Notes: generated by a model not told the origin, from the sequence alone. 46,976 nt of DNA from Gammaproteobacteria bacterium (GCA_024276095.1 JAJRXW010000266.1:1-46976), one strand, 5' to 3'; positions 5,666-21,241 are shown, counted from the stretch's first letter. Program-made: numbers and translations.

Positions 5666-7318
5666 TCATTTCGTATCATCGGTAGCTGCAGGCTGACGTA
5701 TGGATTCCGGAACGACTTCAGCATCAAACAGATCGACGAGCTCCCGGATATTCGGGTCCTGCTCAATCGTTTCCCGGACCTTGCGCTGCCCCTGCTCCGC
5801 TTCTTTTGCGTGGCGCGATGCAACAGTTTCGGAAACCTGTTCCCGAATATCGATTCCGACAGCAATCGCACTGCCCATTTTCTCCTTGATCAGGTCCGTC
5901 AACTGGCCTTTGAGATTGTCTGTCAGCAGATGCCGGCAGCCTGGATCGAGGCCGAGCCGCAGTTCAAACGGCGATGCCGATATCAGCCAGCAGTGTTCGG
6001 CCAGTTGACGAACGGCCCCCTTCAGCCCCAGTTTCCCGAGGAAAGAAGGCCAGTCACCGAGTTCTTCCGGTGAACTGACCGGACCCGGTTCGCCGGCCTG
6101 CTCCGTCGGCCGTGCCTCTGGCTCCGGTGCAGGCGGTGTCGGCTCGGGGCCGGCGGCAGCTTGTTTCGCCGCAGACCTTGCGCGCGGCGCCCCACTGCCG
6201 GAGTTTTCGGGCAGACCGGTTGCAGCACCGTGGGTGACCGGCCGAAATGCCAGCATCCTCAACAAAGCCATTTCAAACCCGAGCCGCGGATCCGGCGCCA
6301 GGTCGAGATCGCGGCGGCTGGTAACGACGATCTGGTAGAAAAGCTGTACCAGCTCCGCATCGAGTTCGCCGGCGAGCCGGCACAGGCTGTCCGTATCATC
6401 GTCCTCGTCCAGCACCTCGGGCCCCGCCATCTGAACGACCGCGATCCGCTGTAACAGTGTGGACAATTCATTTAGAATACTTTGATAATCGGGCGCCAGT
6501 TCGTCCAGCACCTGGATCTCCTGCAACAGTGCCCGGGCATCGCCGGCCACCAGTCCGTCCAGCAACGCGAAAACCCGCTGCGAGTCCATGGTCCCGAGCA
6601 TTTCCGCTACATCGTCGCCACGCAGAACTTCGTTACCAAAAGCCACCGCCTGATCGAGCAGGCTCAGTGCATCGCGCATACTGCCGTCTGCAGCACGAGC
6701 CAGCTGCGTCAATGCGGCCGGCTGCGTATCGATCTGTTCCTGATCGCAAATGTATGCCATGCGGGCGATGATCAGCCTGGTCGACAGGCGTTTGAGATTG
6801 AACTGCAGGCAGCGGGACAATACCGTGACCGGCAGCCTCTGCGGATCGGTGGTGGCAAACAGGAACTTCACATGCGGCGGAGGTTCTTCGAGTGTTTTCA
6901 GCAGAGCATTGAACGCCGGCTTCGACAACATGTGTACTTCATCGATCAGATAGACCTTGTAGCGCCCTACCGTCGGGCGATACTGAACATTTTCGAGAAG
7001 CTCGCGGGTATCGTCCACACCGGTACGGGAAGCGGCATCCACTTCAATCAGATCGACGAAGCGGCCTTCATCCAGTGCGATGCAGGTCTGGCATTGCCCG
7101 CAGGGCTCGGCACTGACGCCCTGCTCGCAGTTCAGGGCCTTGGCGAGTATTCGCGCTACGGTCGTTTTACCGACACCGCGCGTACCGGCAAACAGATAGG
7201 CATGGTGCACCCGCCCGGATTCGAGCGCATTGGCGAGCGCCTTGACGATATGGGGCTGTCCTGCAACATCCTCGAATTTCTGTGGGCGCCATTTACGGGC
7301 CAGTGCGAGATAATCCAT
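5666..7318 (-). CDS. dnaX: DNA polymerase III subunit gamma/tau
   Basis: I prefer the start at M26 of the track ORF (MDYLALARKWRPQKFEDVAGQ). Walker A GTRGVGKTT, zinc module CEQGVSAEPCGQCQTC, Walker B YLIDEVHML, sensor FATT. Confidence 0.95.
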   Translation of the reverse strand: MDYLALARKWRPQKFEDVAGQPHIVKALANALESGRVHHAYLFAGTRGVGKTTVARILAKALNCEQGVSAEPCGQCQTCIALDEGRFVDLIEVDAASRTGVDDTRELLENVQYRPTVGRYKVYLIDEVHMLSKPAFNALLKTLEEPPPHVKFLFATTDPQRLPVTVLSRCLQFNLKRLSTRLIIARMAYICDQEQIDTQPAALTQLARAADGSMRDALSLLDQAVAFGNEVLRGDDVAEMLGTMDSQRVFALLDGLVAGDARALLQEIQVLDELAPDYQSILNELSTLLQRIAVVQMAGPEVLDEDDDTDSLCRLAGELDAELVQLFYQIVVTSRRDLDLAPDPRLGFEMALLRMLAFRPVTHGAATGLPENSGSGAPRARSAAKQAAAGPEPTPPAPEPEARPTEQAGEPGPVSSPEELGDWPSFLGKLGLKGAVRQLAEHCWLISASPFELRLGLDPGCRHLLTDNLKGQLTDLIKEKMGSAIAVGIDIREQVSETVASRHAKEAEQGQRKVRETIEQDPNIRELVDLFDAEVVPESIRQPAATDDTK

Positions 7319-9923: not shown

Positions 9924-9931
9924 ACGAATGC

Positions 9932-9954
9932 AGCAGGCAACCGAAACGCCTGCT
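9932..9954. terminator. Hairpin between convergent btuB and the kor-operon terminal gene
   Basis: AGCAGGC-aaccgaaac-GCCTGCT (7-bp stem) fills the 29-nt gap and overlaps the minus-strand stop codon. No clear U-tract on either side. Confidence 0.3.
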
Positions 9955-12211
9955 AGTGAAACAGTTCCGCCCGCTTGACCAGTTCATCCAGCCCGGGCTC
10001 GTCCGGATTCAGCGGCTTGCCCGGATGGATGATACAAACCTGGCAGCTTTCCGCGGCCTCGACCAGTTCGCGGAAAGTACCCGCGCTCAGGTCGGCGATG
10101 TAGGCCTGCTTGTTCTCATCGTAGGCAAACATGCGGTTATTGCGGTCCGTACACTCATCGCAAGTCGTGCATCTGGGTGTTTCGATGTAGGCCTCATCCG
10201 GGGACGGGCCTGCCGGCGACTGTTCTTCAGCCTCTTCCGTCCCGGCAGTCTGAGCCACGCCGGCCTGCCCGGCCGGCTCTTGTTCCGGTTCAGGGCCAGC
10301 CGCAACACCGGTCTGCTCCAGATCGATACTGAGCTGTTGCAGTTCCTGCGCTTTTTCCTGCTCCCAGGACGCCCGTTCACGGGCCAGCAGCGCCGCCGCG
10401 TGAGAGTTGTTGATCCCGCCCTGCTCCTGCAGCGTACGCCATTGCTCACCGCAACGCCTGGCAACACGAATCAGCGTATCGTCCACCACCAGCCGGTGCA
10501 GAATATCGTCACCGTCGACGACCAGCACATACGGCACCTTGTCGGCAGCGGCGTGCTCATCCAGTTCCAGGTAATCACTGACCGGCACCATGTCGTCGTT
10601 CCAGCTGTCGGGTGCCACGTCGGCAAAGTGCTCCGCATAACGCAGGTCGGTCACCGCGAAGTCCGCGGGCGTCATGGCGATATCGACAATGTTTCTCTGC
10701 AGTTCGTGATCTTCGTACGCCAGCTCGTGGTGTGACCAGGCCTGCTCGATCTGCGGGTTGTGCTGCACATGAAAACGCATGGCCAGGTCCTGGCCCGCAG
10801 ATGGATCGAAGCTGAAAGCAGGGAACGCCCGTGACTCCATTGCCGATGCAGCAACCAGGTAAGGCGGCAGGCCGGGAGTCATCTCCGGCGAACCTGAAAA
10901 AATACTGAACAACGACGGGCCGGTATATGTCAGCCCGGCGGCGATTTCCGCACGCAGCTGGTACAGGCCGGCGCTCACCGACTGCAGGACATAGGCACTG
11001 CCCAGCCCGGTCACGATACCTGCCAGCTGGTGGCCACGCAGGCCGTTGGGAACGTTGCGCTCGAACGGCGCTGCCTCGCCGAGCGTATCGCCAACCTGTA
11101 TCACGATATTCATCGGCAGATCGGAAGACAGTATCTCCATCAGGTCGGCCTGCGCCCGCCCGGCACAGTCCTGCTCGTGAAGACAAATCAGATAGGCGGG
11201 AAACAACGACAGATCTTTCGTCCCCAGCATCCCGGCATCGAAGCGCTGGAAAAACGGATCGTGCGCCGATTCGACATACCGGTTGTCTATCTCCAGTTCC
11301 GCGATCATCATTGCCTTGACCAGCTCGGCCATATCTTCCAGCCGTTCCCGGTAAGCTTTCAGGGCGTTGGCAACACTGCTGAAAACAAAGCGGAACTGCG
11401 TCTTGTTGCGCAGGCGCTTCGCACCGGTACTGCGGGCAGCAAAGAACTTTTGCGTCTCGAGCACCGATAAAGCCGACTGAATGCGTCGTCTGCGCCCGGC
11501 CGGCAGCATCCGTTGCGGAGTCGCCTGGTTCAGCAGCCGTGACATCAGCTCAAAATCGAACGCATCCTGGTAGCGCTCGCCCAGGGAGTTCTTGAGGTTC
11601 TGTGGCGTCCGGGCACCGGCGGCCTTGAGGTCATCGACTTTAAGAATTTCTCCGAGCTTGTGCGTCAGCAGGTCTATTCGCTCCAGGGCAGCGCGCGTCC
11701 GGCTGCTCTCCGCCATGGCCCACAGATGCTCGAACAACCGTGCCGGCAACTGTTCATCGCAGCCGACCACCGGACCATCGATATCCAGCCTGGCCCGTGC
11801 AGCCTGCAGACTGTCCCGGAGCAGCTCCCGGCCTCCGTTGCCGTCACCCGACAGCAGTGCTTTTTCGGCCTGGGCCCACAGTTTGCTCAGCGAACCCTCC
11901 GCACCGTCTGCAACCTGCTCCCGAATCGTGGTCTCAAGCCGCAAAATGTGTTCCCGGTAGCGTTTTCCGGAAATACCCGGCGGGGCAATTTCCTGCAGCA
12001 CCGCGTCGATGACATCCGACAGTGAAATGAGCGGTTCCGGACTGCCCTGCGTCACCAGCACCAGTGGAAAATCATGCCGCAGGCGCGCCAACCGGCGATA
12101 GGGGGCCAGCAAAGCGGAGCAGGTGCCCGGTGTCGCCGGGGACGGCAGCTCCGTGCCGATATGCTGCCCGGTGCGGTGAAATTCGACCATTTGCTGAAAT
12201 TCGACACTCAT
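9953..12211 (-). CDS. Large uncharacterised protein (~752 aa) with an acidic linker and a C-terminal mono-cluster [4Fe-4S]/[3Fe-4S] ferredoxin-like domain
   Basis: Long ORF co-oriented with korB, 17 nt downstream of it. I prefer the ATG at 12211 (MSVEFQQ..., preceded by GCAGG) over the track start at 12244, which overlaps korB. The C-terminus PRCTTCDECTDRNNRMFAYDENKQAYI...SCQVCIIHPGKP has the CxxCxxC...C spacing of single-cluster ferredoxins. The N-terminal ~650 aa show no motif I can name. Confidence 0.8.
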   Translation of the reverse strand: MSVEFQQMVEFHRTGQHIGTELPSPATPGTCSALLAPYRRLARLRHDFPLVLVTQGSPEPLISLSDVIDAVLQEIAPPGISGKRYREHILRLETTIREQVADGAEGSLSKLWAQAEKALLSGDGNGGRELLRDSLQAARARLDIDGPVVGCDEQLPARLFEHLWAMAESSRTRAALERIDLLTHKLGEILKVDDLKAAGARTPQNLKNSLGERYQDAFDFELMSRLLNQATPQRMLPAGRRRRIQSALSVLETQKFFAARSTGAKRLRNKTQFRFVFSSVANALKAYRERLEDMAELVKAMMIAELEIDNRYVESAHDPFFQRFDAGMLGTKDLSLFPAYLICLHEQDCAGRAQADLMEILSSDLPMNIVIQVGDTLGEAAPFERNVPNGLRGHQLAGIVTGLGSAYVLQSVSAGLYQLRAEIAAGLTYTGPSLFSIFSGSPEMTPGLPPYLVAASAMESRAFPAFSFDPSAGQDLAMRFHVQHNPQIEQAWSHHELAYEDHELQRNIVDIAMTPADFAVTDLRYAEHFADVAPDSWNDDMVPVSDYLELDEHAAADKVPYVLVVDGDDILHRLVVDDTLIRVARRCGEQWRTLQEQGGINNSHAAALLARERASWEQEKAQELQQLSIDLEQTGVAAGPEPEQEPAGQAGVAQTAGTEEAEEQSPAGPSPDEAYIETPRCTTCDECTDRNNRMFAYDENKQAYIADLSAGTFRELVEAAESCQVCIIHPGKPLNPDEPGLDELVKRAELFH

Positions 12212-12228
12212 AACCTGCTTACACCCCG

Positions 12229-13194
12229 TCAAACCATGGGCCAAATCGTAAATTTGTCCAGCTCCTCTTCCAAGCCGGCGCTGACCATTGCCGGGGTCTG
12301 CAGCTGCCTGGACCGGCGCAGGTCTTCATAACAGGGCACATCGGGATTGCGATAGAGAATGCCCACCGGAATCCGTTCGCTGGTACCGACAAGCTCCCGG
12401 GCCTGGATGAGATCCATCGGATCATGGTCTGCCGTTTGCCGGTACACGCTCGACAGCGCCGTGCTCATTTGCACGCCATCCTCGTGGGTCAATATCAGCA
12501 TCCGGTCCGGATCCTGCACCCAGGGTTCGAAATGATCGGGCAGAAATTCCGGGCAACGCTGCAAAATGCGAATAAACGAAAATCCATGGTGATGGAAAGC
12601 CAGCGAAATGATTTTGTACAGCAGCTCCGGAATCCAGTCAGCGGCCTGGGCCACGAAGGAAAGATTGGACATGCCGAGTGTCGCTATCAAAGGATCGAAT
12701 GCCGCAAGATCCGAGCCCCGTGGCGTGGTGTTGCTGCGCGTCCCCTGCGGCGAAGTCGGCGAAGCCTGTTTCTTGGTCAGACCGTAGATGTTGTTGTCGT
12801 GCATCATCACGGTCATATCCATGTTGTAACGTGCCGCATGAAGCCAGTGTGCAGCACCGATGCTGCAGCAGTCGCCATCGCCGGTATTGACGAAAACGTG
12901 TAGATCGGGCCGGCGCATCTTGATGCCCTCTGCAACAGGCAATGCCCGACCATGCAAACCGTGAAAGCCATAGGTGCCCATGTAATGGGGAAAGCGGCTG
13001 GAGCAGCCGATTCCGGACACGAAAACGACTTTCTCCAGCGGCAACTGCTCGTCGCGCAGCAGCCGCTGTACGGCGGTAAGAATTCCCAGGTCTCCGCACC
13101 CGGTGCACCACCGCGGAGCACAGCCCTCATAGTCTTCCAGGGCCAGCGCTTCTTCGGCAGAGCGCGGTAAAAAATCGACGGCACGTAACGCCAT
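12229..13194 (-). CDS. korB: 2-oxoglutarate (2-oxoacid):ferredoxin oxidoreductase beta subunit
   Basis: N-terminal Cys motif WCTGCGDLGI..., TPP-binding GDGDCCSIG...N..YG motif, typical ~320 aa, immediately downstream of the alpha subunit. Confidence 0.9.
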   Translation of the reverse strand: MALRAVDFLPRSAEEALALEDYEGCAPRWCTGCGDLGILTAVQRLLRDEQLPLEKVVFVSGIGCSSRFPHYMGTYGFHGLHGRALPVAEGIKMRRPDLHVFVNTGDGDCCSIGAAHWLHAARYNMDMTVMMHDNNIYGLTKKQASPTSPQGTRSNTTPRGSDLAAFDPLIATLGMSNLSFVAQAADWIPELLYKIISLAFHHHGFSFIRILQRCPEFLPDHFEPWVQDPDRMLILTHEDGVQMSTALSSVYRQTADHDPMDLIQARELVGTSERIPVGILYRNPDVPCYEDLRRSRQLQTPAMVSAGLEEELDKFTIWPMV

Positions 13195-13205
13195 TTCCGG
13201 TACCT

Positions 13206-15095
13206 CTATTGTTCCCGATCCAGGTGTTGGCGAATAATCCGCTCAACCGTACCGGGCTTGATCGGCTGCTCGCCGACTTCGCCCCAGCAGTCCACATCGA
13301 TCAGGTATTTTGCCCGCAGTAGCCACGCCAGGCTGGAGTAACGGCGGTTATCCTCATCGATCATCGCGTCATCCAGGCTGTCGGCCCAGTTGTTTTCAAC
13401 GGCCAGCACCCTGTCGAAGCGCTGCAGAATCTCCTTGATGCCCGAAGCCATCGGCTGCAAAAAGCGCAGGTGCAGTGCGGAAACACTGCGACCATCCGCC
13501 CGCACCCGGTCGACGGCTTCCCGAATCGCGCCTTTGGTACTGCCCCAGCCGATGACCAGCAGTTCACCTTCATCGTCACCGAATACCGGCGGCGGTTTCA
13601 GCGTCTTCTGCAGGGCAGCCAGTTTCAGGCTGCGGTGCTGGATCGCATCCCTGTTGATCTCCAGGTTATAGGCGACGCTGCTGGTGCGGTCATGGGCAAG
13701 ACCGGTCAGCGTATGCATGCCGTTGGGTTGACCGGGTATGAACCGGTTGCTCTGGCCGGTACCTGCATCCCAGTCATAGGGTTCGTCGTCATCATGTACC
13801 GGACTCTGATCGACGGGCGGGGCCAGCCACTCTTCGCTGAACTGCGGTCGCGTAAACGGCTGCTGGGCCGTTGCAAGACTCGCGTCCGACAGCAGCACGA
13901 CAACCGTATTGAAAGTTTCGGCAATCTTGCGGGCTGTAATCACCGAGTAAAAACAGTCTTCGATATCGGAGGCAGCCATCACCACCTTGGGGGCATCGCC
14001 ATGGCTGCCGAAAATAGCCGTCATCAGGTCGCCCTGCTCGGCCTTGGTGGGCTGCCCGGTAGACGGCCCGCCGCGCTGCACGTCGATCACCACCAGCGGA
14101 ATCTCCGTCATCACGGCAAGACCGATACATTCCTGTTTCAGCGAATAACCGGGGCCGGAGGTAATCGTAACCGCGCACTTGCCGGCATATGAGGCACCGA
14201 TCGCGAATGCACAGGCGGCGATTTCATCTTCCGCCTGGTGCACGACGCCGCCCACCTTCTCGAATACGTCGCTAAGATAATGTGACACGGAAGTGGCAGG
14301 CGTTATGGGATACATGGAGCACACCTCCATGCCGGATGCCATGATGCCCAGCCCCAGCGCGATGTTTCCGCTGACTACGATGTGCGCTTCTTTTGCCGGA
14401 GTGGTCGGAATCTTGTATTTAAAATCGAGATTGTTCTCGGCCCATGTCCAGCCGGCTTCCAGCAGCCGGTTGTTGGACGTTACCACCAGCTCTCCTTTCC
14501 TGCCGAAAATAAACTGGATCTGTTCTTTGGCCAGCTGCATGTCGAGACTGTAAAGGCTGCACAACAGCCCCAGGACGAACATGTTTTTCCCGCGCCGTGG
14601 GTCTGAAACGAGTTTCAGACATTCGACCTCCATCGGAACCTCGTAGACACAAAAGCCCCTGGCCAACAGGTCGTCATATACGCGGGTATAGGAGGCGACG
14701 ATCCCGGCGTCCGGACTGGTCCGCCACTTGTCCTCCAGCAAAATAATACAGCCGGGCTTGAGTTCGTTGGCCTGCAGTCTGCCCAGCAAAACCTGTTCGT
14801 TGAACGCTACGACCAGGTCCGCCTGATCACCGCCGTTCGCCACCGGATGCCCGGCAACCCTGATACGGTTACCGCTGCCTCCTTCGATGCTGCGCGCCGG
14901 GGGCTGGATTTCAGCCGGAATAATTTCCAGTGTCCAGATTCCCTTGCCCATCTTCGCAGCGATCGAGCCGAAAGACTGCCCGCACTTTTGCGCGCCCTCG
15001 CCGGAATCGCTGAGGATCTCGACAATGTGCTCGTCAATCGCCATGGCCGGTTTGCTGACCGGCGAGCGCGGAACCGATTGTTTCCTGGTGGACAT
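13206..15095 (-). CDS. korA: 2-oxoglutarate (2-oxoacid):ferredoxin oxidoreductase alpha subunit
   Basis: 629 aa. Gamma-like domain at the N-terminus (SGEGAQKCGQSFG...), then the pyrimidine-binding domain (YPITPATS...HQAEDEIAA...GASYAGKCAVTITSGPG). GGAGAA RBS 4 nt (spacer GCC) before the ATG. Confidence 0.9.
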   Translation of the reverse strand: MSTRKQSVPRSPVSKPAMAIDEHIVEILSDSGEGAQKCGQSFGSIAAKMGKGIWTLEIIPAEIQPPARSIEGGSGNRIRVAGHPVANGGDQADLVVAFNEQVLLGRLQANELKPGCIILLEDKWRTSPDAGIVASYTRVYDDLLARGFCVYEVPMEVECLKLVSDPRRGKNMFVLGLLCSLYSLDMQLAKEQIQFIFGRKGELVVTSNNRLLEAGWTWAENNLDFKYKIPTTPAKEAHIVVSGNIALGLGIMASGMEVCSMYPITPATSVSHYLSDVFEKVGGVVHQAEDEIAACAFAIGASYAGKCAVTITSGPGYSLKQECIGLAVMTEIPLVVIDVQRGGPSTGQPTKAEQGDLMTAIFGSHGDAPKVVMAASDIEDCFYSVITARKIAETFNTVVVLLSDASLATAQQPFTRPQFSEEWLAPPVDQSPVHDDDEPYDWDAGTGQSNRFIPGQPNGMHTLTGLAHDRTSSVAYNLEINRDAIQHRSLKLAALQKTLKPPPVFGDDEGELLVIGWGSTKGAIREAVDRVRADGRSVSALHLRFLQPMASGIKEILQRFDRVLAVENNWADSLDDAMIDEDNRRYSSLAWLLRAKYLIDVDCWGEVGEQPIKPGTVERIIRQHLDREQ

Positions 15096-15104
15096 GGCTT
15101 CTCC

Positions 15105-16607
15105 CTAGCCCAGCCGAACGCGCGTGAACGTCCGTTCTTCGAGACCGATGCCAAACAGCTTGCTGTCGCTGCCGGTTTGCGGCGCCTGATAGACCGTTTC
15201 CGAATCGCGTATGCCAAGGTAGGCTTTCATGCTGCGTGCCGCCTCCCGGCCGGTACCCATGGCCAGAATGACGGTCGCGGCGCCCGTTACGATGTCACCG
15301 CCGGCATAGACACCCGCCATTGACGTGGCGAAATGCTCGTCGGTCTGGATATAACCCCATTTGTTCAGCTCGATCTTCGATGTCTGGCCGATGATCGGGT
15401 TGGCATTGGTTCCAATCGCATACACCACCGTATCGATCGCAAATTCGAAATCGCTGCCCTCGATCGGTATCGGACGGCGCCGGCCGGAATCATCCGGCTC
15501 ACCCAGTTCCATACGGACGCAACGCATCGCGCGCACGTTGTTCTCGCCGTCATCCAGGATCTCGACCGGCAGCGTCAGCCACTCGAACTGGATACCTTCT
15601 TCTTCGGCATGTTCGATCTCTTCTTCGCGGGCCGGGCTCTCTTCGCGGGTGCGCCGATAGATACAATAAACCTGCTCCGCCCCGGCCCGCAGCGAAACCC
15701 GCAGTGCATCCATCGCCGTGTTGCCGGAACCGATGACGGCAACACGCTTGCCCAGACCCAGCGGCGTATCGTATTTGGGAAACTCGGTGGCACCCATCAG
15801 GTTACAGCGTGTCAGCAGTTCATTGGCAGACAACACGCCATTGAGCGATTCCCCGCCAATCCCCATGAAACTCGGATACCCGGCACCGGTACCGATGAAT
15901 ACGGCGTCGAAACCGAGTTCATCGAGCATCTGCTCGACCGTGAACAGCCGTCCGGCGAGCATATTGCATTCGATCCTGACGCCGAGGCGGGTGAGATTTT
16001 CCAGTTCGGCATCGAGCACACCGTTGGGCAGGCGAAACTCGGTAATACCGTAGCGCAGCACGCCGCCCGCTTTGTGCAGGGCTTCATAGATTGTGACATC
16101 GCAACCGGCCTTGGCCATGTCCGCCGCACAGGCCATACCGGCAGGACCTGAACCGATGATGCCCACCCTGAGCCCGTTGGGCTCGATGTATGGCGTATTG
16201 TCCCAATGCTCGTGGATTGCCGTATCGCCCACCCAGCGTTCGAGCCGCCCGATGGCCACCGGTTTGAGTTTATCGCCGACCGGGCAAACCCCCTCACACT
16301 GGTCCTCCTGCGGACATACCCTGCCGCAGATCGCCGGCAGCAAAGTGGAATCGGTGAGGATGTCGTAGGCGCCGCGAAAATCCTTTGCCGCAATCCTGGT
16401 AATAAACCCGGGAATATCGATGTTCACGGGACAGGCCGGGACACACTCCGGATTCGGACAAACGAGGCAGCGCTCGCTCTCGTTCAGTGCATCCACTTCG
16501 CGATAGCCCAAAGTCACTTCATCGAAATTGCCGACCCGCACCGCCGGGTCCTGTGTCGGTATCGAGGTCCTTTCCTGCGGAATGCTGCGAATGGTTTTCT
16601 TGCCCAT
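15105..16607 (-). CDS. GltD/NfnB/SudA-family NAD(P)H-dependent iron-sulfur flavoprotein (glutamate synthase small-subunit-like)
   Basis: ERCLVCPNPECVPACPVNIDIPGFI plus a second Cys cluster CGRVCPQEDQCEGVC, two dinucleotide folds (VGIIGSGPAGMACA and VAVIGSGNTAMDA), and GGD near the C-terminus. Its start codon abuts the upstream stop (TAGATG). Confidence 0.85.
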   Translation of the reverse strand: MGKKTIRSIPQERTSIPTQDPAVRVGNFDEVTLGYREVDALNESERCLVCPNPECVPACPVNIDIPGFITRIAAKDFRGAYDILTDSTLLPAICGRVCPQEDQCEGVCPVGDKLKPVAIGRLERWVGDTAIHEHWDNTPYIEPNGLRVGIIGSGPAGMACAADMAKAGCDVTIYEALHKAGGVLRYGITEFRLPNGVLDAELENLTRLGVRIECNMLAGRLFTVEQMLDELGFDAVFIGTGAGYPSFMGIGGESLNGVLSANELLTRCNLMGATEFPKYDTPLGLGKRVAVIGSGNTAMDALRVSLRAGAEQVYCIYRRTREESPAREEEIEHAEEEGIQFEWLTLPVEILDDGENNVRAMRCVRMELGEPDDSGRRRPIPIEGSDFEFAIDTVVYAIGTNANPIIGQTSKIELNKWGYIQTDEHFATSMAGVYAGGDIVTGAATVILAMGTGREAARSMKAYLGIRDSETVYQAPQTGSDSKLFGIGLEERTFTRVRLG

Positions 16608-17690
16608 CTACTTCGCTCCGGCGGCCGTCTTCCAGGCATCCATGGCCTGGGATTCCTGTTGTTTAAACCGCCCCAGTCGATTCATCAGATCGTCGAAATC
16701 GACCTTGTGCCCGTCAAACTCCGGGCCATCTACGCAGGCGAACTTCGTCTCGTCGCCGACAATGACGCGACAGCCCCCGCACATACCCGTGCCGTCAACA
16801 ACAATGGGGTTCATGCTGACGATGGTCTCAACCTTGTAGGGACGGGTCGTCTCCGCACAGGCTTTCATCATGATCGGCGGACCGATGGCAACCACCCGAT
16901 CGACGTCGGGATGTTTTTCCAGGGCGGCCTCTACACCGAGCGTAACGCGGCCCTTGATGCCCACCGAGCCATCGTCCGTGCAGATGATCAGCTCATCGCA
17001 ATACTGCCGGAACCGGTCTTCCCAGAAAATCAGCTGCCTGTTCCTGAAACCGACCACACCGATAACATATGCACCGCTTTGCTTGAACGCGCGCAACTGG
17101 GGAAAGATGGGCGCAACACCGAGGCCGCCACCGACACAAACGACTTTTTTGGTATCGAGATGACTGGGGAAGCCCATCGGCCCGGCGACGCTGTACAGTC
17201 GTGACCCGGCCTGACAGCGCTGCTGCATTTCCCGCGTCGACTTTCCGACCGCCTGGATAACCAGCGTGATGGTCCCGGCCACCCGATCGAAATCTGCGAT
17301 AGTCAGCGGCACACGTTCTCCGCGCTGGTGTGAAATCACGATGACGAACTGGCCCGGTTGCGCGGCCCGGGCCAGCATCGGTGCGGACACTTCCAGCAGG
17401 AAGGTGACGTCGGAGAAGTCTTTCCGGGTGACGACTTCATAACCGGTGCCCGGGGGCGGATCCACGGACGTGCTGCATGCAGTAGCAGCGGCGCGCTGCT
17501 CACGCGCCTGTCTGATTTTACTGCGGAATTCCTCAACAACTGCCTGGCGCGCAGTCTGGGCGGTTTTCAAATCACGCGTCTGGAGCGACCGGCGCAGATC
17601 ACAGCCCAGCGAATCGCGCAGCGGGCGCGGTACCGCAACCTTGACCCACCAGATCTGGTCGCGCTTGAAAAGGTATTTCGTGTCGCTCAT
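16608..17690 (-). CDS. NfnA/SudB/PyrK-like FAD/[2Fe-2S] electron-transfer subunit carrying an unusual ~80-aa basic N-terminal extension
   Basis: Residues ~85-360 match the ferredoxin-NADP reductase-like fold (GQFVIV...ERVPLTIADFD, VCVGGGLGVAPIFP) and the PyrK-type cluster motif DGTGMCGGCRV...CVDGPEF. The ATG at 17690 follows GGGGG at 7 nt. No ATG start exists near residue 80; a GTG codon at residue ~76 lacks a visible RBS. Confidence 0.8.
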   Translation of the reverse strand: MSDTKYLFKRDQIWWVKVAVPRPLRDSLGCDLRRSLQTRDLKTAQTARQAVVEEFRSKIRQAREQRAAATACSTSVDPPPGTGYEVVTRKDFSDVTFLLEVSAPMLARAAQPGQFVIVISHQRGERVPLTIADFDRVAGTITLVIQAVGKSTREMQQRCQAGSRLYSVAGPMGFPSHLDTKKVVCVGGGLGVAPIFPQLRAFKQSGAYVIGVVGFRNRQLIFWEDRFRQYCDELIICTDDGSVGIKGRVTLGVEAALEKHPDVDRVVAIGPPIMMKACAETTRPYKVETIVSMNPIVVDGTGMCGGCRVIVGDETKFACVDGPEFDGHKVDFDDLMNRLGRFKQQESQAMDAWKTAAGAK

Positions 17691-17879: not shown

Positions 17880-18026
17880 TAACACCTTGAACCGAATTGA
17901 GGCCATTGGAAATAGGTAGAAGCCGCAGTCGGGCAATCGGCTTTCGCCTTTCTTCGCAACCCTCGGAGTGTTAGATTCATTACACACCTTCCAGTTGCAA
18001 ATACCGATCACTCCGGGAGGGCAGTC

Positions 18027-18663: not shown

Positions 18664-19887
18664 CTATTCCCGGGCAGCGAGTTCCTTTTCTTTTTTGGCT
18701 GCATTCATGTAAACCACCATCGCATGCCAGTTATGCCTTGTGGCACGCGCAAGCCCGAGAAACGCCTGTCCCTTCAGGGCATGAGCAGATTGGTTTGACG
18801 GCTCGTTGGTCGTAACGATATCCAGTACCTCCAGCGCAAGCTGATATCGCTGCTGTTCGACCAGCCGCCCGGCAACCCGCAGCAACTCCTCCTCACCCCC
18901 CGCTATCTCTGCGAAAAGCCGGTCGCGCTCCTTTTTCGGCGCGGGAGAGAAACGGATCGGATCTTTGCCAAAATAGCCGGTATACCTCCTGTGCAGTCGA
19001 TTGACATACTGCTCCTTGCTGTTCAGAAACGTTTTTTCCAGGAGCGCGTTGCCCTCGAATTCCGCCGGCATTGTGACGGCTGCCTGCGTCTCCTCCAGAT
19101 CGAGCCCCTCATCGACTCTGTCCTTGATCTCTTTTACCAGGTAGCGGGTCACCTGTTTTACCGCATGCAGCGTATCCATGCCGGTATTGCTCATGAAACC
19201 GTGACCGGGCACAAAGATATCGACATCGAGGCTGTCCACCAGGTCAATTGCTTCGACCAGGCCTTCGGGATATCCCTCCGGCATGGCCGGAGATCCCAGG
19301 TTATTGTTGGTCATGTCGCCGAAAAAAAGGATCCTGTCCTGCGTAAGATAGACCAGCACGGCATCATCGGTCTCCGCCTTGATGTGAATCAGCCGGATCG
19401 TTTTGCCACCGAACTCCAGTGTCAGGCGATCCCTGAAGGTGCTGTCAGGATAAACAAGAGGCGCATCGACCAATGTCCCCAGCGCTTCCTGGTTTACCCG
19501 CTCCAGCTTCTTCAGGGTATCGAAATTTTTTACCAGGTTTTCATGAGCGATAAAAACGGTGTCGTTCTCCCTGAAAGCGCCGGCCCCGGCCACATGGTCA
19601 TAATGATAGTGGGTATAAACGACATACCTGATCGGCTTTGCGGTGACCTTGCGTATGCTGGCCAGAAACTCCCGGCCAAGCTGCGGACTCATCCCGGTAT
19701 CGATCACAAGCACGCCTTCGTCCGTGACGACAAACCCCATGTTATTGGACACATAGCCCACCCCCACATAGACGCCATCGGCAATTTCGATGGTGTCGCG
19801 GGAAGGCAGGCCCTGGGCACTAGCGTAGCCGGACAACACGCCTGCAAGAAGAAAAACACGCCAGAACCCGGAAAAAAGAAGCATCAT
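18664..19887 (-). CDS. Secreted metallo-beta-lactamase-fold hydrolase with alkyl-sulfatase-type helical dimerisation region
   Basis: The track ORF runs to 20175 and overlaps hipA. I prefer the ATG at 19887 (GGAG about 11 nt upstream), giving the signal peptide MMLLFSGFWRVFLLAGVLSGYASAQG. HxHxDH motif (YTHYHYDHVAG), later GH and D metal ligands, and a C-terminal helical region resembling alkyl-sulfatase dimerisation domains. Confidence 0.7.
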   Translation of the reverse strand: MMLLFSGFWRVFLLAGVLSGYASAQGLPSRDTIEIADGVYVGVGYVSNNMGFVVTDEGVLVIDTGMSPQLGREFLASIRKVTAKPIRYVVYTHYHYDHVAGAGAFRENDTVFIAHENLVKNFDTLKKLERVNQEALGTLVDAPLVYPDSTFRDRLTLEFGGKTIRLIHIKAETDDAVLVYLTQDRILFFGDMTNNNLGSPAMPEGYPEGLVEAIDLVDSLDVDIFVPGHGFMSNTGMDTLHAVKQVTRYLVKEIKDRVDEGLDLEETQAAVTMPAEFEGNALLEKTFLNSKEQYVNRLHRRYTGYFGKDPIRFSPAPKKERDRLFAEIAGGEEELLRVAGRLVEQQRYQLALEVLDIVTTNEPSNQSAHALKGQAFLGLARATRHNWHAMVVYMNAAKKEKELAARE

Positions 19888-19918
19888 TTCGGCTTTCGCT
19901 CCTGCGCCGTAACAGGCA

Positions 19919-21241
19919 CTACGGTTTAAGATCAGCCCGATGGCTGTTGGCAATTTTACCGATGCTGACCTCGTCAACACCCGCCTGCCGGGCAAAATCC
20001 GGCCAGGCCTCCACGGCCGCGTATACCTGCTGAATGATGCGCTTCGCGGGAGATATATTGAATCGGCCGGCAACCGCCAGAAGGTCTTCGGCCAGAAAGT
20101 CATCCTGCTTTCCGTTGATTGCCATTTGGTGTCGACTGGTCCACGCCCCGTCGGGATTGTAAGCATACGTGACATCGAATGCCGGTGAAAGACACCACTT
20201 TCCCTGTTCGTCCATCAGGAATGCAATGTTCTTCGTATGATCGTCCTGGTTTCTGGCCAGAACATTGAATACCATTCGGCGATACTGCTCGATCAGGGAA
20301 CTCATCGGCAACTGCAGCTGCTGTATGACCGAAAAAGCCTGTTCGTAACTGTGAGCGCCGGCAAGCCTGAAATCGAGATGCGATATTGCAAACAGGGATT
20401 GCATGTGAATTTTGTCGCCGTTGCTTTTCCGGTCGAAACGCCTGGTCATGAAATGAGCGCGATCGTTTTCATAGAGAAGCCTCGACGGCGTCATCTCGAT
20501 GCCGGCAGCCTTCGCCATGAGATAGTAGCCGAACTCTATTTTTCCGTATCCCCGGGGATCGGCAAGACCTTCGTAGCGATTGTCAACGCCATCGAATTTC
20601 AGCAGCCAGTACTCAAAACCCTCCGGTGCGGCAACCTGCCCGGAACGCATCTCCTGCGTGGCGGGGTTCCATGCAACGATTGCTTTCGCCCTTGCTCCAC
20701 CCGCCGACGTACCGACACGAAGAATATCGTCCAGGGCGCCGGCATCAGGTGAATCTTTTCCGGATAACCGGACATGAAGTTCCTCGCGTTGATGAATAAC
20801 GCTGTTGACCAGGTCAACCAGCTCGGCGATTTCTATCACGGCGGAAGCCCCCGGCGCGCGCCGCATCGATGGACGGTATTCGAGCGCGCCCATTCCGCGC
20901 CGTCCGATGTAGCACAACCGTTCAACAGGACTGAACCCGGCCGGATCGCGGCCCTGCCTGGCCAGCCATTCCTGGATGAGCCTGTTGCCAAAATCATCCG
21001 GTAACGAATCCGCCAGCAATCCCGGCAGGCCCAGGAAACCGGGCCCGGAAAGCTCCGGAAACGAGTAAATCTTTCTGGCCCGTAGCGGCATCATCAACGG
21101 CGCAGGCTCGATACCGGTTCTTGCAAATTCCTCGGTGTACTCGAACGACGCCACCCCGCGCCGCTCATCCCAGGATACCGCGCCGAGCGAACGCCCCCAC
21201 AGGTCGATCTCGGCAACGTCAACACGCTTGCCTGTTATCAC
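19919..21241 (-). CDS. hipA: Type II toxin-antitoxin toxin HipA (Ser/Thr kinase)
   Basis: 440 aa. N-terminal coupling domain (VAEIDLWGRSLGAVSWD...FEY), kinase core with SAGGARAKA and NQDDHTKNIAFL motifs. Directly downstream of an XRE-type antitoxin gene. Confidence 0.9.
   Translation of the reverse strand: MITGKRVDVAEIDLWGRSLGAVSWDERRGVASFEYTEEFARTGIEPAPLMMPLRARKIYSFPELSGPGFLGLPGLLADSLPDDFGNRLIQEWLARQGRDPAGFSPVERLCYIGRRGMGALEYRPSMRRAPGASAVIEIAELVDLVNSVIHQREELHVRLSGKDSPDAGALDDILRVGTSAGGARAKAIVAWNPATQEMRSGQVAAPEGFEYWLLKFDGVDNRYEGLADPRGYGKIEFGYYLMAKAAGIEMTPSRLLYENDRAHFMTRRFDRKSNGDKIHMQSLFAISHLDFRLAGAHSYEQAFSVIQQLQLPMSSLIEQYRRMVFNVLARNQDDHTKNIAFLMDEQGKWCLSPAFDVTYAYNPDGAWTSRHQMAINGKQDDFLAEDLLAVAGRFNISPAKRIIQQVYAAVEAWPDFARQAGVDEVSIGKIANSHRADLKP

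Follow-up and report, generated by a model that had tools for sequence, protein, structure and literature searches.

2-Oxoacid:ferredoxin oxidoreductases (OFORs) catalyse the formation or cleavage of C-C bonds with CO2 at about -500 mV, and how cells without an abundant pool of low-potential ferredoxin, especially aerobes, supply or dispose of the electrons is an open practical question. We take it up here for a 46,976-nt stretch of DNA from Gammaproteobacteria bacterium (GCA_024276095.1 JAJRXW010000266.1:1-46976; hereafter the window), in which the genes of a two-subunit OFOR of the KorAB type share one operon with those of an NfnAB-like flavoprotein pair and of a 752-aa protein, which we call Big. 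With what does this KorAB exchange its electrons? Our answer, to which we give an even chance of being right, is that the five genes would encode one dedicated soluble electron chain running through a tethered ferredoxin and a bifurcating Nfn. On the same balance, as part of the same joint reading, the system would be a 2-oxoacid (probably 2-oxoglutarate):NAD(P)+ oxidoreductase/synthase.

Organization of the operon

The open reading frames (ORFs) of the operon are the following:

16608-17690, minus strand, NfnA-like ORF, 360 aa
15105-16607, minus strand, NfnB-like ORF, 500 aa
13206-15095, minus strand, KorA ORF, 629 aa
12229-13194, minus strand, KorB ORF, 321 aa
9953-12211, minus strand, Big ORF, 752 aa counted from the ATG

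The five ORFs form one unbroken co-directional block, with spacers of 0, 9, 11 and 17 nt in the order from nfnA to Big; an alternative TTG start at 12244 would extend Big to 763 aa. An earlier reading of the window (the sequence-only reading) had described five minus-strand genes separated by 0-17 nt, and the ORF coordinates bear this out in full. Its naming of the first four products as NfnA/PyrK-like, GltD/NfnB-like, KorA and KorB was also correct, according to profile searches and matches to the sequences of solved structures. Judged by their strong family matches, the five genes are no chance ORFs.

NfnAB and KorAB subunits

Domains and cofactor sites of the four assigned subunits were located as follows:

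16608-17441, minus strand, NfnA/SudB/PyrK-like core with FAD/NAD(H)-binding domain and [2Fe-2S] site (NF004862, PF10418)
15105-16607, minus strand, NfnB/GltD-like large subunit with two [4Fe-4S] sites and FAD and NADPH folds (PF14691, PF07992)
13206-15095, minus strand, KorA-type OFOR alpha subunit with domains III-I-II (PF01558, PF01855 and PF17147; POR, POR_N and PFOR_II)
12229-13194, minus strand, KorB-type OFOR beta subunit with intact thiamine-diphosphate motif (PF02775, PF12367, TIGR02177)

Canonical Nfn is a free-standing NADH-dependent ferredoxin:NADP+ oxidoreductase that uses soluble ferredoxin. In profile searches, the NfnA-like protein scored 372 bits against NF004862, and it matched the small subunit of P. 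furiosus NfnI (5jca_S) with 309 bits, the cluster motifs being aligned. Its [2Fe-2S] ligands are one Asp and three Cys (D299, C304, C307 and C319), contained in the motif DGTGMCGGCRV...C at residues 299-319. The NfnB-like protein reached 558 bits against TIGR01316, above the cutoff, together with 517 bits against T. maritima NfnB (4ylf_B) and 481 bits against P. furiosus NfnI (5jca_L). It has the features of a large subunit, namely eight Cys for two [4Fe-4S] clusters (residues 47-108) and two dinucleotide folds. Both subunits are present, every canonical cofactor site is kept, and the identity to enzymes with proven bifurcation is about 55-60%.

KorA scored 503 bits against the alpha-subunit model TIGR03710 (cutoff 482.75), and its best solved relative is the 2-oxoglutarate:ferredoxin oxidoreductase (OGOR) of Magnetococcus (6n2n_A, 276 bits). 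The best match of KorB is the beta subunit of Sulfolobus OFOR (5b48_B, 179 bits). In that alignment, KorB has the thiamine-diphosphate motif and four Cys for one [4Fe-4S] cluster, the motifs being CxxC at 30 (C30/C33), GIGCSS at 61 (C64), GDGD at 105, HDNN at 132 and RCPE at 212 (C214). As far as their sequences tell, the NfnAB pair and KorAB are each an ordinary member of their own family. 2-Oxoglutarate is a plausible substrate, to which the closest solved structure, Magnetococcus OGOR, is the only pointer. KorB is without a delta/ferredoxin domain, and KorAB-type enzymes have only the proximal cluster and no internal ferredoxin domain V (domain scheme in PMC12337175). An external one-electron carrier is therefore needed, and a built-in one fills a real gap.

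The 752-aa protein Big

A built-in ferredoxin carrier had been proposed for the 752-aa protein in the sequence-only reading. It is present, with invariant Cys, and the modelled linker places it on a flexible tether. What that reading overlooked is that the rest of this "giant" is largely a degenerate domain VI of pyruvate:ferredoxin oxidoreductase (PFOR). Four regions were distinguished in Big:

11798-12211, minus strand, residues 1-138, family-specific N-terminal domain with invariant R45, D47, P49, E93 and R97
10406-11797, minus strand, residues 139-602, degenerate PFOR domain VI (beta-subunit fold)
10208-10405, minus strand, residues 603-668, long helix followed by a disordered Ala/Glu/Pro-rich linker
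9953-10207, minus strand, residues 669-752 and stop codon, single-[4Fe-4S] ferredoxin module with C681, C684, C687 and C723

When Big and its family profile were searched by sequence against Pfam, NCBIfam and the Protein Data Bank (PDB), the ferredoxin was the sole match. Over its last 70 residues, Big resembles ferredoxin I of D. africanus (1dax), with E values of 1.3e-3 for the single sequence and 8.8e-5 for the family profile. Big itself gave no Pfam or NCBIfam match, its ferredoxin module lying below the Pfam reporting threshold, and PF13370 (Fer4_13) is recorded on many of its homologues. All four Cys of the single-cluster motif (C681-x2-C684-x2-C687...C723) are invariant in 61 aligned homologues. 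An AlphaFold (AF2) model built from these 61 sequences has a predicted local distance difference test score (pLDDT) of 83 and a predicted template modelling score (pTM) of 0.74. In the model, residues 603-633 form a helix and pLDDT is below 50 for residues 635-668. Across the homologues, the linker is 22-59 residues long (median 37) and is composed of 27% A, 17% E and 16% P.

The top Foldseek matches of the model were Moorella PFOR (6ciq) and the beta subunits of oxalate oxidoreductase (OOR) and OFORs (5exe_F). Moreover, an intact PFOR of 1,710 aa from Gemmatimonadota, which carries POR_N, PFOR_II, POR, Fer4, TPP_enzyme_C and a C-terminal Fer4_13, matches Big with its last 700 residues. Residues 139-752 of Big align to residues 1004-1710 of this protein (blastp E 1e-45; hhalign probability 100%, E 6e-60), whose domain VI in turn aligns to Moorella PFOR 6cin with all catalytic motifs intact. 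The PFOR tail is retained in Big, comprising an extra beta-rich subdomain, a 30-residue helix, the linker and the ferredoxin. The homology to domain VI is visible only through the fold and the 1,710-aa intermediate; hhalign of the Big family against the KorB of the window gave no match. Read from the alignment, the PFOR motifs correspond to the following in Big:

PFOR GACMGCGE, Big GPVVGCDE (one Cys remains, the invariant C151)
PFOR TGCSS, Big without Cys
PFOR GGDG, Big HEQD
PFOR NTGGQ, Big DTLGEA
PFOR TPCP, Big SGSP

The thiamine-diphosphate/Mg motif is gone, HEQD and VGDTLGE standing in its place, and of the four Cys of the proximal cluster only C151 is left. Big is without domains I, II and III (no Pfam or NCBIfam match), and residues 1-138 are unrelated to them. 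This N-terminal domain had no Pfam, NCBIfam or PDB match and no detectable relatives beyond the Big family, within which it is kept in a Calditrichota orthologue and in long forms of 1,330-1,460 aa. Going by these motifs, Big is a domain VI (beta-subunit) paralogue that should be able to bind neither thiamine diphosphate nor the proximal cluster. Without domains I-III and V, the GDG...N motif and the three cluster Cys, it cannot be catalytic. C151 (codon 11759-11761) is one Cys of the lost proximal-cluster CxxC pair and is invariant in the 61 homologues, the other three ligands being gone.

At least 505 full-length homologues of Big were found by a word-indexed search. An exhaustive search gave 2,114 clusters at 50% identity with E <= 1e-3, including 843 with E <= 1e-30. 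The long forms (P0207, P0216, P0231, P0250 and P0264; locus L161, 8001-12383) consist of about 650 residues with a weak PFOR_II signal followed by a complete Big. They appear to be whole PFORs that have decayed into pseudo-enzymes and still lie directly after korAB. The 1,710-aa protein is encoded in a Gemmatimonadales locus (L050, 6974-12106), between an RnfB-like gene and RnfD and 2 kb after korAB; this single-chain PFOR, with its additional tethered ferredoxin at the C-terminus, appears to represent the type from which Big descends. A 337-aa protein encoded between korB and the RnfB-like gene of the same locus was considered as a relative of Big and ruled out, as it is unrelated.

Conservation of gene order

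Genomes containing relatives of Big were scanned, one per species, and the other four proteins were located by tblastn; loci were counted when Big was at least 37% identical and enough flanking DNA was available. The order NfnA-NfnB-KorA-KorB-Big on one strand was found in all 30 complete genome loci, and seven truncated loci were consistent with it. The hosts belong to six phyla: Pseudomonadota (alpha, beta and gamma), a "Deltaproteobacteria" metagenome-assembled genome (MAG), Actinomycetota, Chloroflexota, Spirochaetota and Acidobacteriota. They include Woeseiaceae, the cultured Photobacterium lipolyticum and P. sagamiensis, Acidimicrobiia, Thermoleophilia, Chloroflexia, Spirochaetia and Burkholderiales. 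Many are aerobes or facultative, and most are heterotrophs.

A metagenome test started from KorB instead (at least 65% identical, 80 loci), with counts made over loci with room for the gene concerned. Big lay directly downstream of KorB in 70 of 70, NfnB was in place in 41 of 41 and NfnA in 38 of 38. One locus was flagged by the script for Big; this was a scoring artefact, and Big is present there. In total, the five-gene order is unvarying in about 100 independent loci from six phyla. The sequence-only reading had beforehand made its proposal depend on the linkage being kept in relatives, and the order is the same in all loci with room. The flanking genes are not conserved and are unrelated between the window and Photobacterium. 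With an invariant order inside differing flanks, the five genes act as one transferable module.

Partners of KorAB and Big where NfnAB is absent

Every member of the Big family examined lies directly after korAB, and Big was never found away from it. Where NfnAB is missing, other partners take its place. The Calditrichota MAG (L036) has the order RnfC-like, bacterial microcompartment (BMC) shell protein, KorA, KorB, Big, RnfB-like iron-sulfur protein, 1,345-aa Fer4 protein and RnfC. In L161, the long form of Big lies between KorA-KorB and an RnfB-like gene, and a Woeseiaceae-like contig (L165) has the order KorA-KorB-Big-RnfB-like-giant PFOR. Most Gemmatimonadota have KorA-KorB, a gene without assigned family, RnfB-like, the giant PFOR with ferredoxin tail and RnfD. 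To judge by its domains, the varying partner of KorAB-Big is always a ferredoxin-docking, NAD(P)H-handling module, and the position of KorAB-Big beside RnfB/RnfC-like modules fits a pyridine-nucleotide-linked OFOR. In the Calditrichota locus, the BMC-domain shell protein (5942-6490) and the RnfC-like gene, which is permuted, are directly upstream of korAB-Big.

Proposed electron chain and alternatives

Gene content, cofactor motifs, synteny, the homology and degeneration of Big, its tether and the RnfB/RnfC-like alternative partners are observations; the physical complex, electron route, bifurcation, substrate and physiological direction are what we infer. In the proposed chain, KorAB would oxidise a 2-oxoacid with CoA or, in reverse, carboxylate an acyl-CoA, and the C-terminal [4Fe-4S] ferredoxin of Big would carry its low-potential electrons singly. 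The cofactor-less domain VI and the N-terminal domain of Big would form the anchor. On its Ala/Glu/Pro-rich tether of about 35 residues, the ferredoxin would swing from the cluster of KorB to the NfnB iron-sulfur chain and back; this chain would be the acceptor or donor, and NfnAB would couple the ferredoxin-level electrons to NADPH and NADH. By the canonical Nfn stoichiometry, one OFOR turnover pairs with one Nfn cycle. If the Nfn is canonical, the overall reaction would be 2-oxoacid + CoA + NADH + 2 NADP+ <-> acyl-CoA + CO2 + NAD+ + 2 NADPH. Run oxidatively, the system would make NADPH; run in reverse, it could be driven towards reductive carboxylation by high ratios of NADPH/NADP+ and NAD+/NADH, with no need for free low-potential ferredoxin.

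Several points weigh against this bifurcating chain. The NfnAB pair also matches the P. furiosus paralogue 5vj7 strongly, and some Nfn homologues do not bifurcate or are without Nfn activity (PMC9973337). KorB is slightly nearer to the broad-specificity Sulfolobus OFOR than to OGOR, and the sequence leaves the substrate unfixed. Additionally, the invariant C151, the N-terminal domain of Big and the role of the cofactor-less domain are not accounted for. The same dedicated chain might instead work without bifurcation, the NfnAB-like pair being a simple ferredoxin:NADP+ (or NAD+) reductase and the whole a plain 2-oxoacid:NADP+ oxidoreductase like Azoarcus KorABC. One GltD/NfnB-family subunit is enough for NADP+ coupling in the Azoarcus enzyme (classified in PMC10134865), the inactive Nfn homologues point the same way, and the RnfB/RnfC-like alternative partners are not bifurcating modules. 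However, both NfnAB subunits are kept with all their cofactor sites at close identity to proven bifurcating enzymes, and NfnA, superfluous for a simple reductase, is kept in every metagenome locus with room. We regard the non-bifurcating variant as unlikely but worth keeping in view.

A different division of labour, with free cellular ferredoxin linking KorAB to NfnAB and other enzymes, would leave Big as a structural, assembly, oxygen-shielding or regulatory pseudo-subunit of KorAB. About 90% of Big is not ferredoxin, its degenerate domain VI and N-terminal domain are highly conserved, and many hosts are aerobes or facultative organisms in which cluster shielding would matter. The invariance of the four ferredoxin Cys and the attachment of the module through a flexible linker of varying length, as is usual for mobile carrier domains, argue against this role and make it improbable, as does the occurrence of the same tail at the end of an intact PFOR that already owns a catalytic domain. 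It is very unlikely that the operon provides an autotrophic reductive tricarboxylic acid (TCA) cycle with its 2-oxoglutarate synthase, although the closest solved KorA is an OGOR of that cycle and an Nfn-coupled system could in principle power carboxylation with NADPH. The sequence-only reading had taken ppsA as a hint of such a role, which the window does not sustain: the ppsA gene is truncated and lies at the edge of the window, 8 kb from the operon with housekeeping genes between, and the window, otherwise of housekeeping genes, has neither ATP-citrate lyase nor other genes of the cycle. The hosts, moreover, include Photobacterium, Acidimicrobiia, Burkholderiales and Chloroflexia, and the flanks vary. 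Hardly credible, finally, is co-location for co-regulation only, in which an Nfn transhydrogenase and a KorAB, both of general function, would act independently of each other and of an unrelated iron-sulfur protein; the order and tight spacing are invariant over six phyla while the flanks change, and Big never leaves korAB.

An integrase-type domain on NfnA and upstream repeats

Besides the parts of the proposed bifurcating chain, the operon has a second feature, overlooked in the sequence-only reading, which is an extra integrase-type domain on NfnA with matching repeats upstream:

17442-17690, minus strand, N-terminal extension of NfnA, 83 residues, DUF6538 (integrase N-terminal type; Pfam PF20172)
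17744-51, 17797-804, 17822-29 and 17872-79, minus strand, four copies of AAGGTACA in the same orientation, 54-190 nt before the ATG of the nfnA-like gene

The extension matches PF20172 with E 6e-10 and 39 bits against a gathering cutoff of 27. In a tblastn search, it matched the N-terminus of a 504-aa tyrosine-recombinase ORF on an Azospirillum replicon; a PHROG search gave no match. It is present in frame in 12 genome loci (Gammaproteobacteria, Acidimicrobiia, Spirochaetales and others), and its sequence differences are biased to the third codon position, which indicates that it is translated. An integrase remnant and a mis-called start were ruled out by the in-frame conservation across phyla together with this third-position-biased change. 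AF2 predicted a beta-beta-beta-helix topology of three strands and a long helix (pLDDT 83).

The four upstream copies of AAGGTACA are all those in the 47-kb window, for which 0.34 would be expected. Among operons with the extension, GGTACA is found upstream in 29 of 29, and at least two forward copies lie within 300 nt in 28 of 29, whereas 40 of 41 operons without the extension have no GGTACA upstream. The consensus across loci is (G/C)(A/T)AAGGTACA(G), with 75 forward copies to one reverse. The density of the 8-mer is 8.1 per kb in the upstream 300 nt versus 0.027 per kb elsewhere in the loci (about 300-fold), and the upstream sequence around the repeats is otherwise unalignable between phyla. 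No Rfam family was found in the region upstream of nfnA.

This pattern suggests that the integrase-type N-terminal domain may bind the AAGGTACA repeats, as a proposed operator, and autoregulate the operon. Autoregulation by an enzyme-borne nucleic-acid-binding domain would be the most economical reading of domain and repeats; the sole basis for putative binding of DNA or RNA by the extension is that the repeats co-occur with it. Three points count against this regulatory role. Foldseek of the extension model gave no significant match and no link to solved DNA-binding folds. In a neighbour-joining tree of NfnB and KorA, operons with the extension group together as one clade, so that the co-occurrence represents few independent events. 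Lastly, the strict same-strand orientation of the repeats would equally fit an RNA-level signal.

DUF6538 is also fused to KorA where korA comes first in the operon, and one such locus has three copies of GGTACA upstream; the domain seems to accompany whichever gene opens the operon. In L163 (2880-3437) and L165 (14-10427), DUF6538 is fused to, or directly before, KorA in KorA-KorB-Big-RnfB-like-giant PFOR operons, with GGTACA repeats upstream. Upstream of the repeats in the window lies a GACTGCGGCTTCTACCTATTTCCAATGG block (17903-17930, minus strand), which recurs with little change ahead of the L163 operon for DUF6538-KorA (about 2833-2860) and has looser versions (CGG..T....TAT.T.CAA) in other Woeseiaceae-like loci. 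This block may be a promoter or a second operator. In the Photobacterium lipolyticum locus (L015), where NfnA is without DUF6538, a gene for a Crp/Fnr-type regulator (2157-2843) lies 1.5 kb upstream of the operon, which may be regulated by a separate factor.

Taken at its fullest, the proposal is of a widespread five-subunit machine whose KorAB-type OFOR would be wired to a bifurcating NfnAB by a swinging-arm ferredoxin borne on a dead PFOR domain. In one clade, the first subunit would also serve as the transcription factor of the enzyme, recognising the AAGGTACA repeats with a DNA-binding domain derived from an integrase. We hold this combined form tentatively, as possible but short of probable.

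Context of the operon in the window

At the end of the operon, a consensus scan marked one further feature:

9931-9955, minus strand, terminator-like hairpin with a nine-pair stem, a pattern match only, overlapping the stop codon of Big

A simple promoter scan detected no sigma-70-like site on the strand of the operon. The rest of the window encodes RNase T, RsgA, RecR, DnaX, TonB receptors, a HipA kinase, transaldolase, a DAHP-synthase-family enzyme, a two-component system and MoxR/VWA proteins. The HipA-family kinase gene (19919-21241, minus strand) overlaps the start region of a metallo-beta-lactamase/alkylsulfatase-like gene (18664-20175, minus strand). This pair (18664-21241) lies just upstream of the operon region and is unrelated to the operon finding.

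Implications

If the reading is true, OFOR, ferredoxin and Nfn in one self-contained unit would solve the supply and disposal of OFOR electrons in a compact and transferable way and offer a natural blueprint for NADPH-driven CO2 fixation modules. Oxygen-respiring and facultative bacteria could then run 2-oxoacid oxidation or reductive carboxylation on their NADH and NADPH pools without free low-potential ferredoxin. In the Big family, with more than 2,000 clusters at 50% identity and no Pfam or NCBIfam model, a catalytic domain would have been recycled as the anchor of a tethered electron carrier. The pairing of domain and repeats offers a candidate DNA-binding specificity for DUF6538 and a possible "trigger enzyme". 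Because the operon is present in the cultured, tractable Photobacterium lipolyticum DSM 16190, these proposals are directly testable.

Comparison with known systems

A search of full-text literature, with subscription journals outside its coverage, found no paper on the five-gene cluster or the large protein. As far as the searches reach, the KorAB-Big-NfnAB combination, the Big family and the DUF6538 fusion are new. The nearest precedent is KorABC of Azoarcus evansii, a 2-oxoglutarate:NADP+ oxidoreductase reportedly described by Ebenau-Jehle et al. in 2003 as having three subunits. Its third subunit has been placed in the GltD/NfnB family (PMC10134865), consistent with the GltD-like third subunit named in the sequence-only reading. 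Both systems combine a two-subunit KorAB-type OFOR with a GltD/NfnB-family flavo-iron-sulfur subunit. Unlike the operon described here, with its five genes, a full NfnAB pair nearest to bifurcating Nfn and a tethered ferredoxin, the Azoarcus enzyme has neither an NfnA-type subunit nor a large ferredoxin-bearing protein. The operon is thus like KorABC in principle only: NfnA and the 752-aa protein set it apart from the three-subunit enzymes, and, as the sequence-only reading had maintained, its architecture goes beyond that precedent by a complete NfnAB pair and a tethered-ferredoxin pseudo-subunit.

With canonical NfnAB, the pair shares both subunits, all cofactor motifs (517 and 309 bits) and ferredoxin as the expected partner. 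The difference is that the pair is bound here into one operon with the ferredoxin presumed to serve it and with a ferredoxin-reducing OFOR, and that NfnA of the window's subclade has an extra integrase-type N-terminal domain. KorAB resembles Magnetococcus marinus OGOR (6n2n) and Sulfolobus tokodaii OFOR (5b46/5b48) in its alpha subunit of domains III-I-II, its beta subunit with thiamine diphosphate and one [4Fe-4S] cluster, and the lack of domain V; those enzymes, however, use free ferredoxin and have no third, beta-like pseudo-subunit. Big has the domain VI fold of single-chain PFORs (Moorella 6cin, D. africanus 1b0p) and shares with the 1,710-aa Gemmatimonadota PFOR-like protein the whole tail of extra beta-domain, long helix, linker and ferredoxin. 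It differs from PFORs in being without domains I-III and V, the GDG...N motif and three cluster Cys.

Two further systems provide analogies. The lipoyl domains of the E2 component of 2-oxoacid dehydrogenases are carriers on an Ala/Pro-rich flexible linker that shuttle between active sites, and PutA, an enzyme-borne repressor, is a redox enzyme with a nucleic-acid-binding domain of its own. The likeness is one of analogy only, as the carrier here would be a [4Fe-4S] ferredoxin and the putative DNA-binding domain would be of the integrase N-terminal type (DUF6538).

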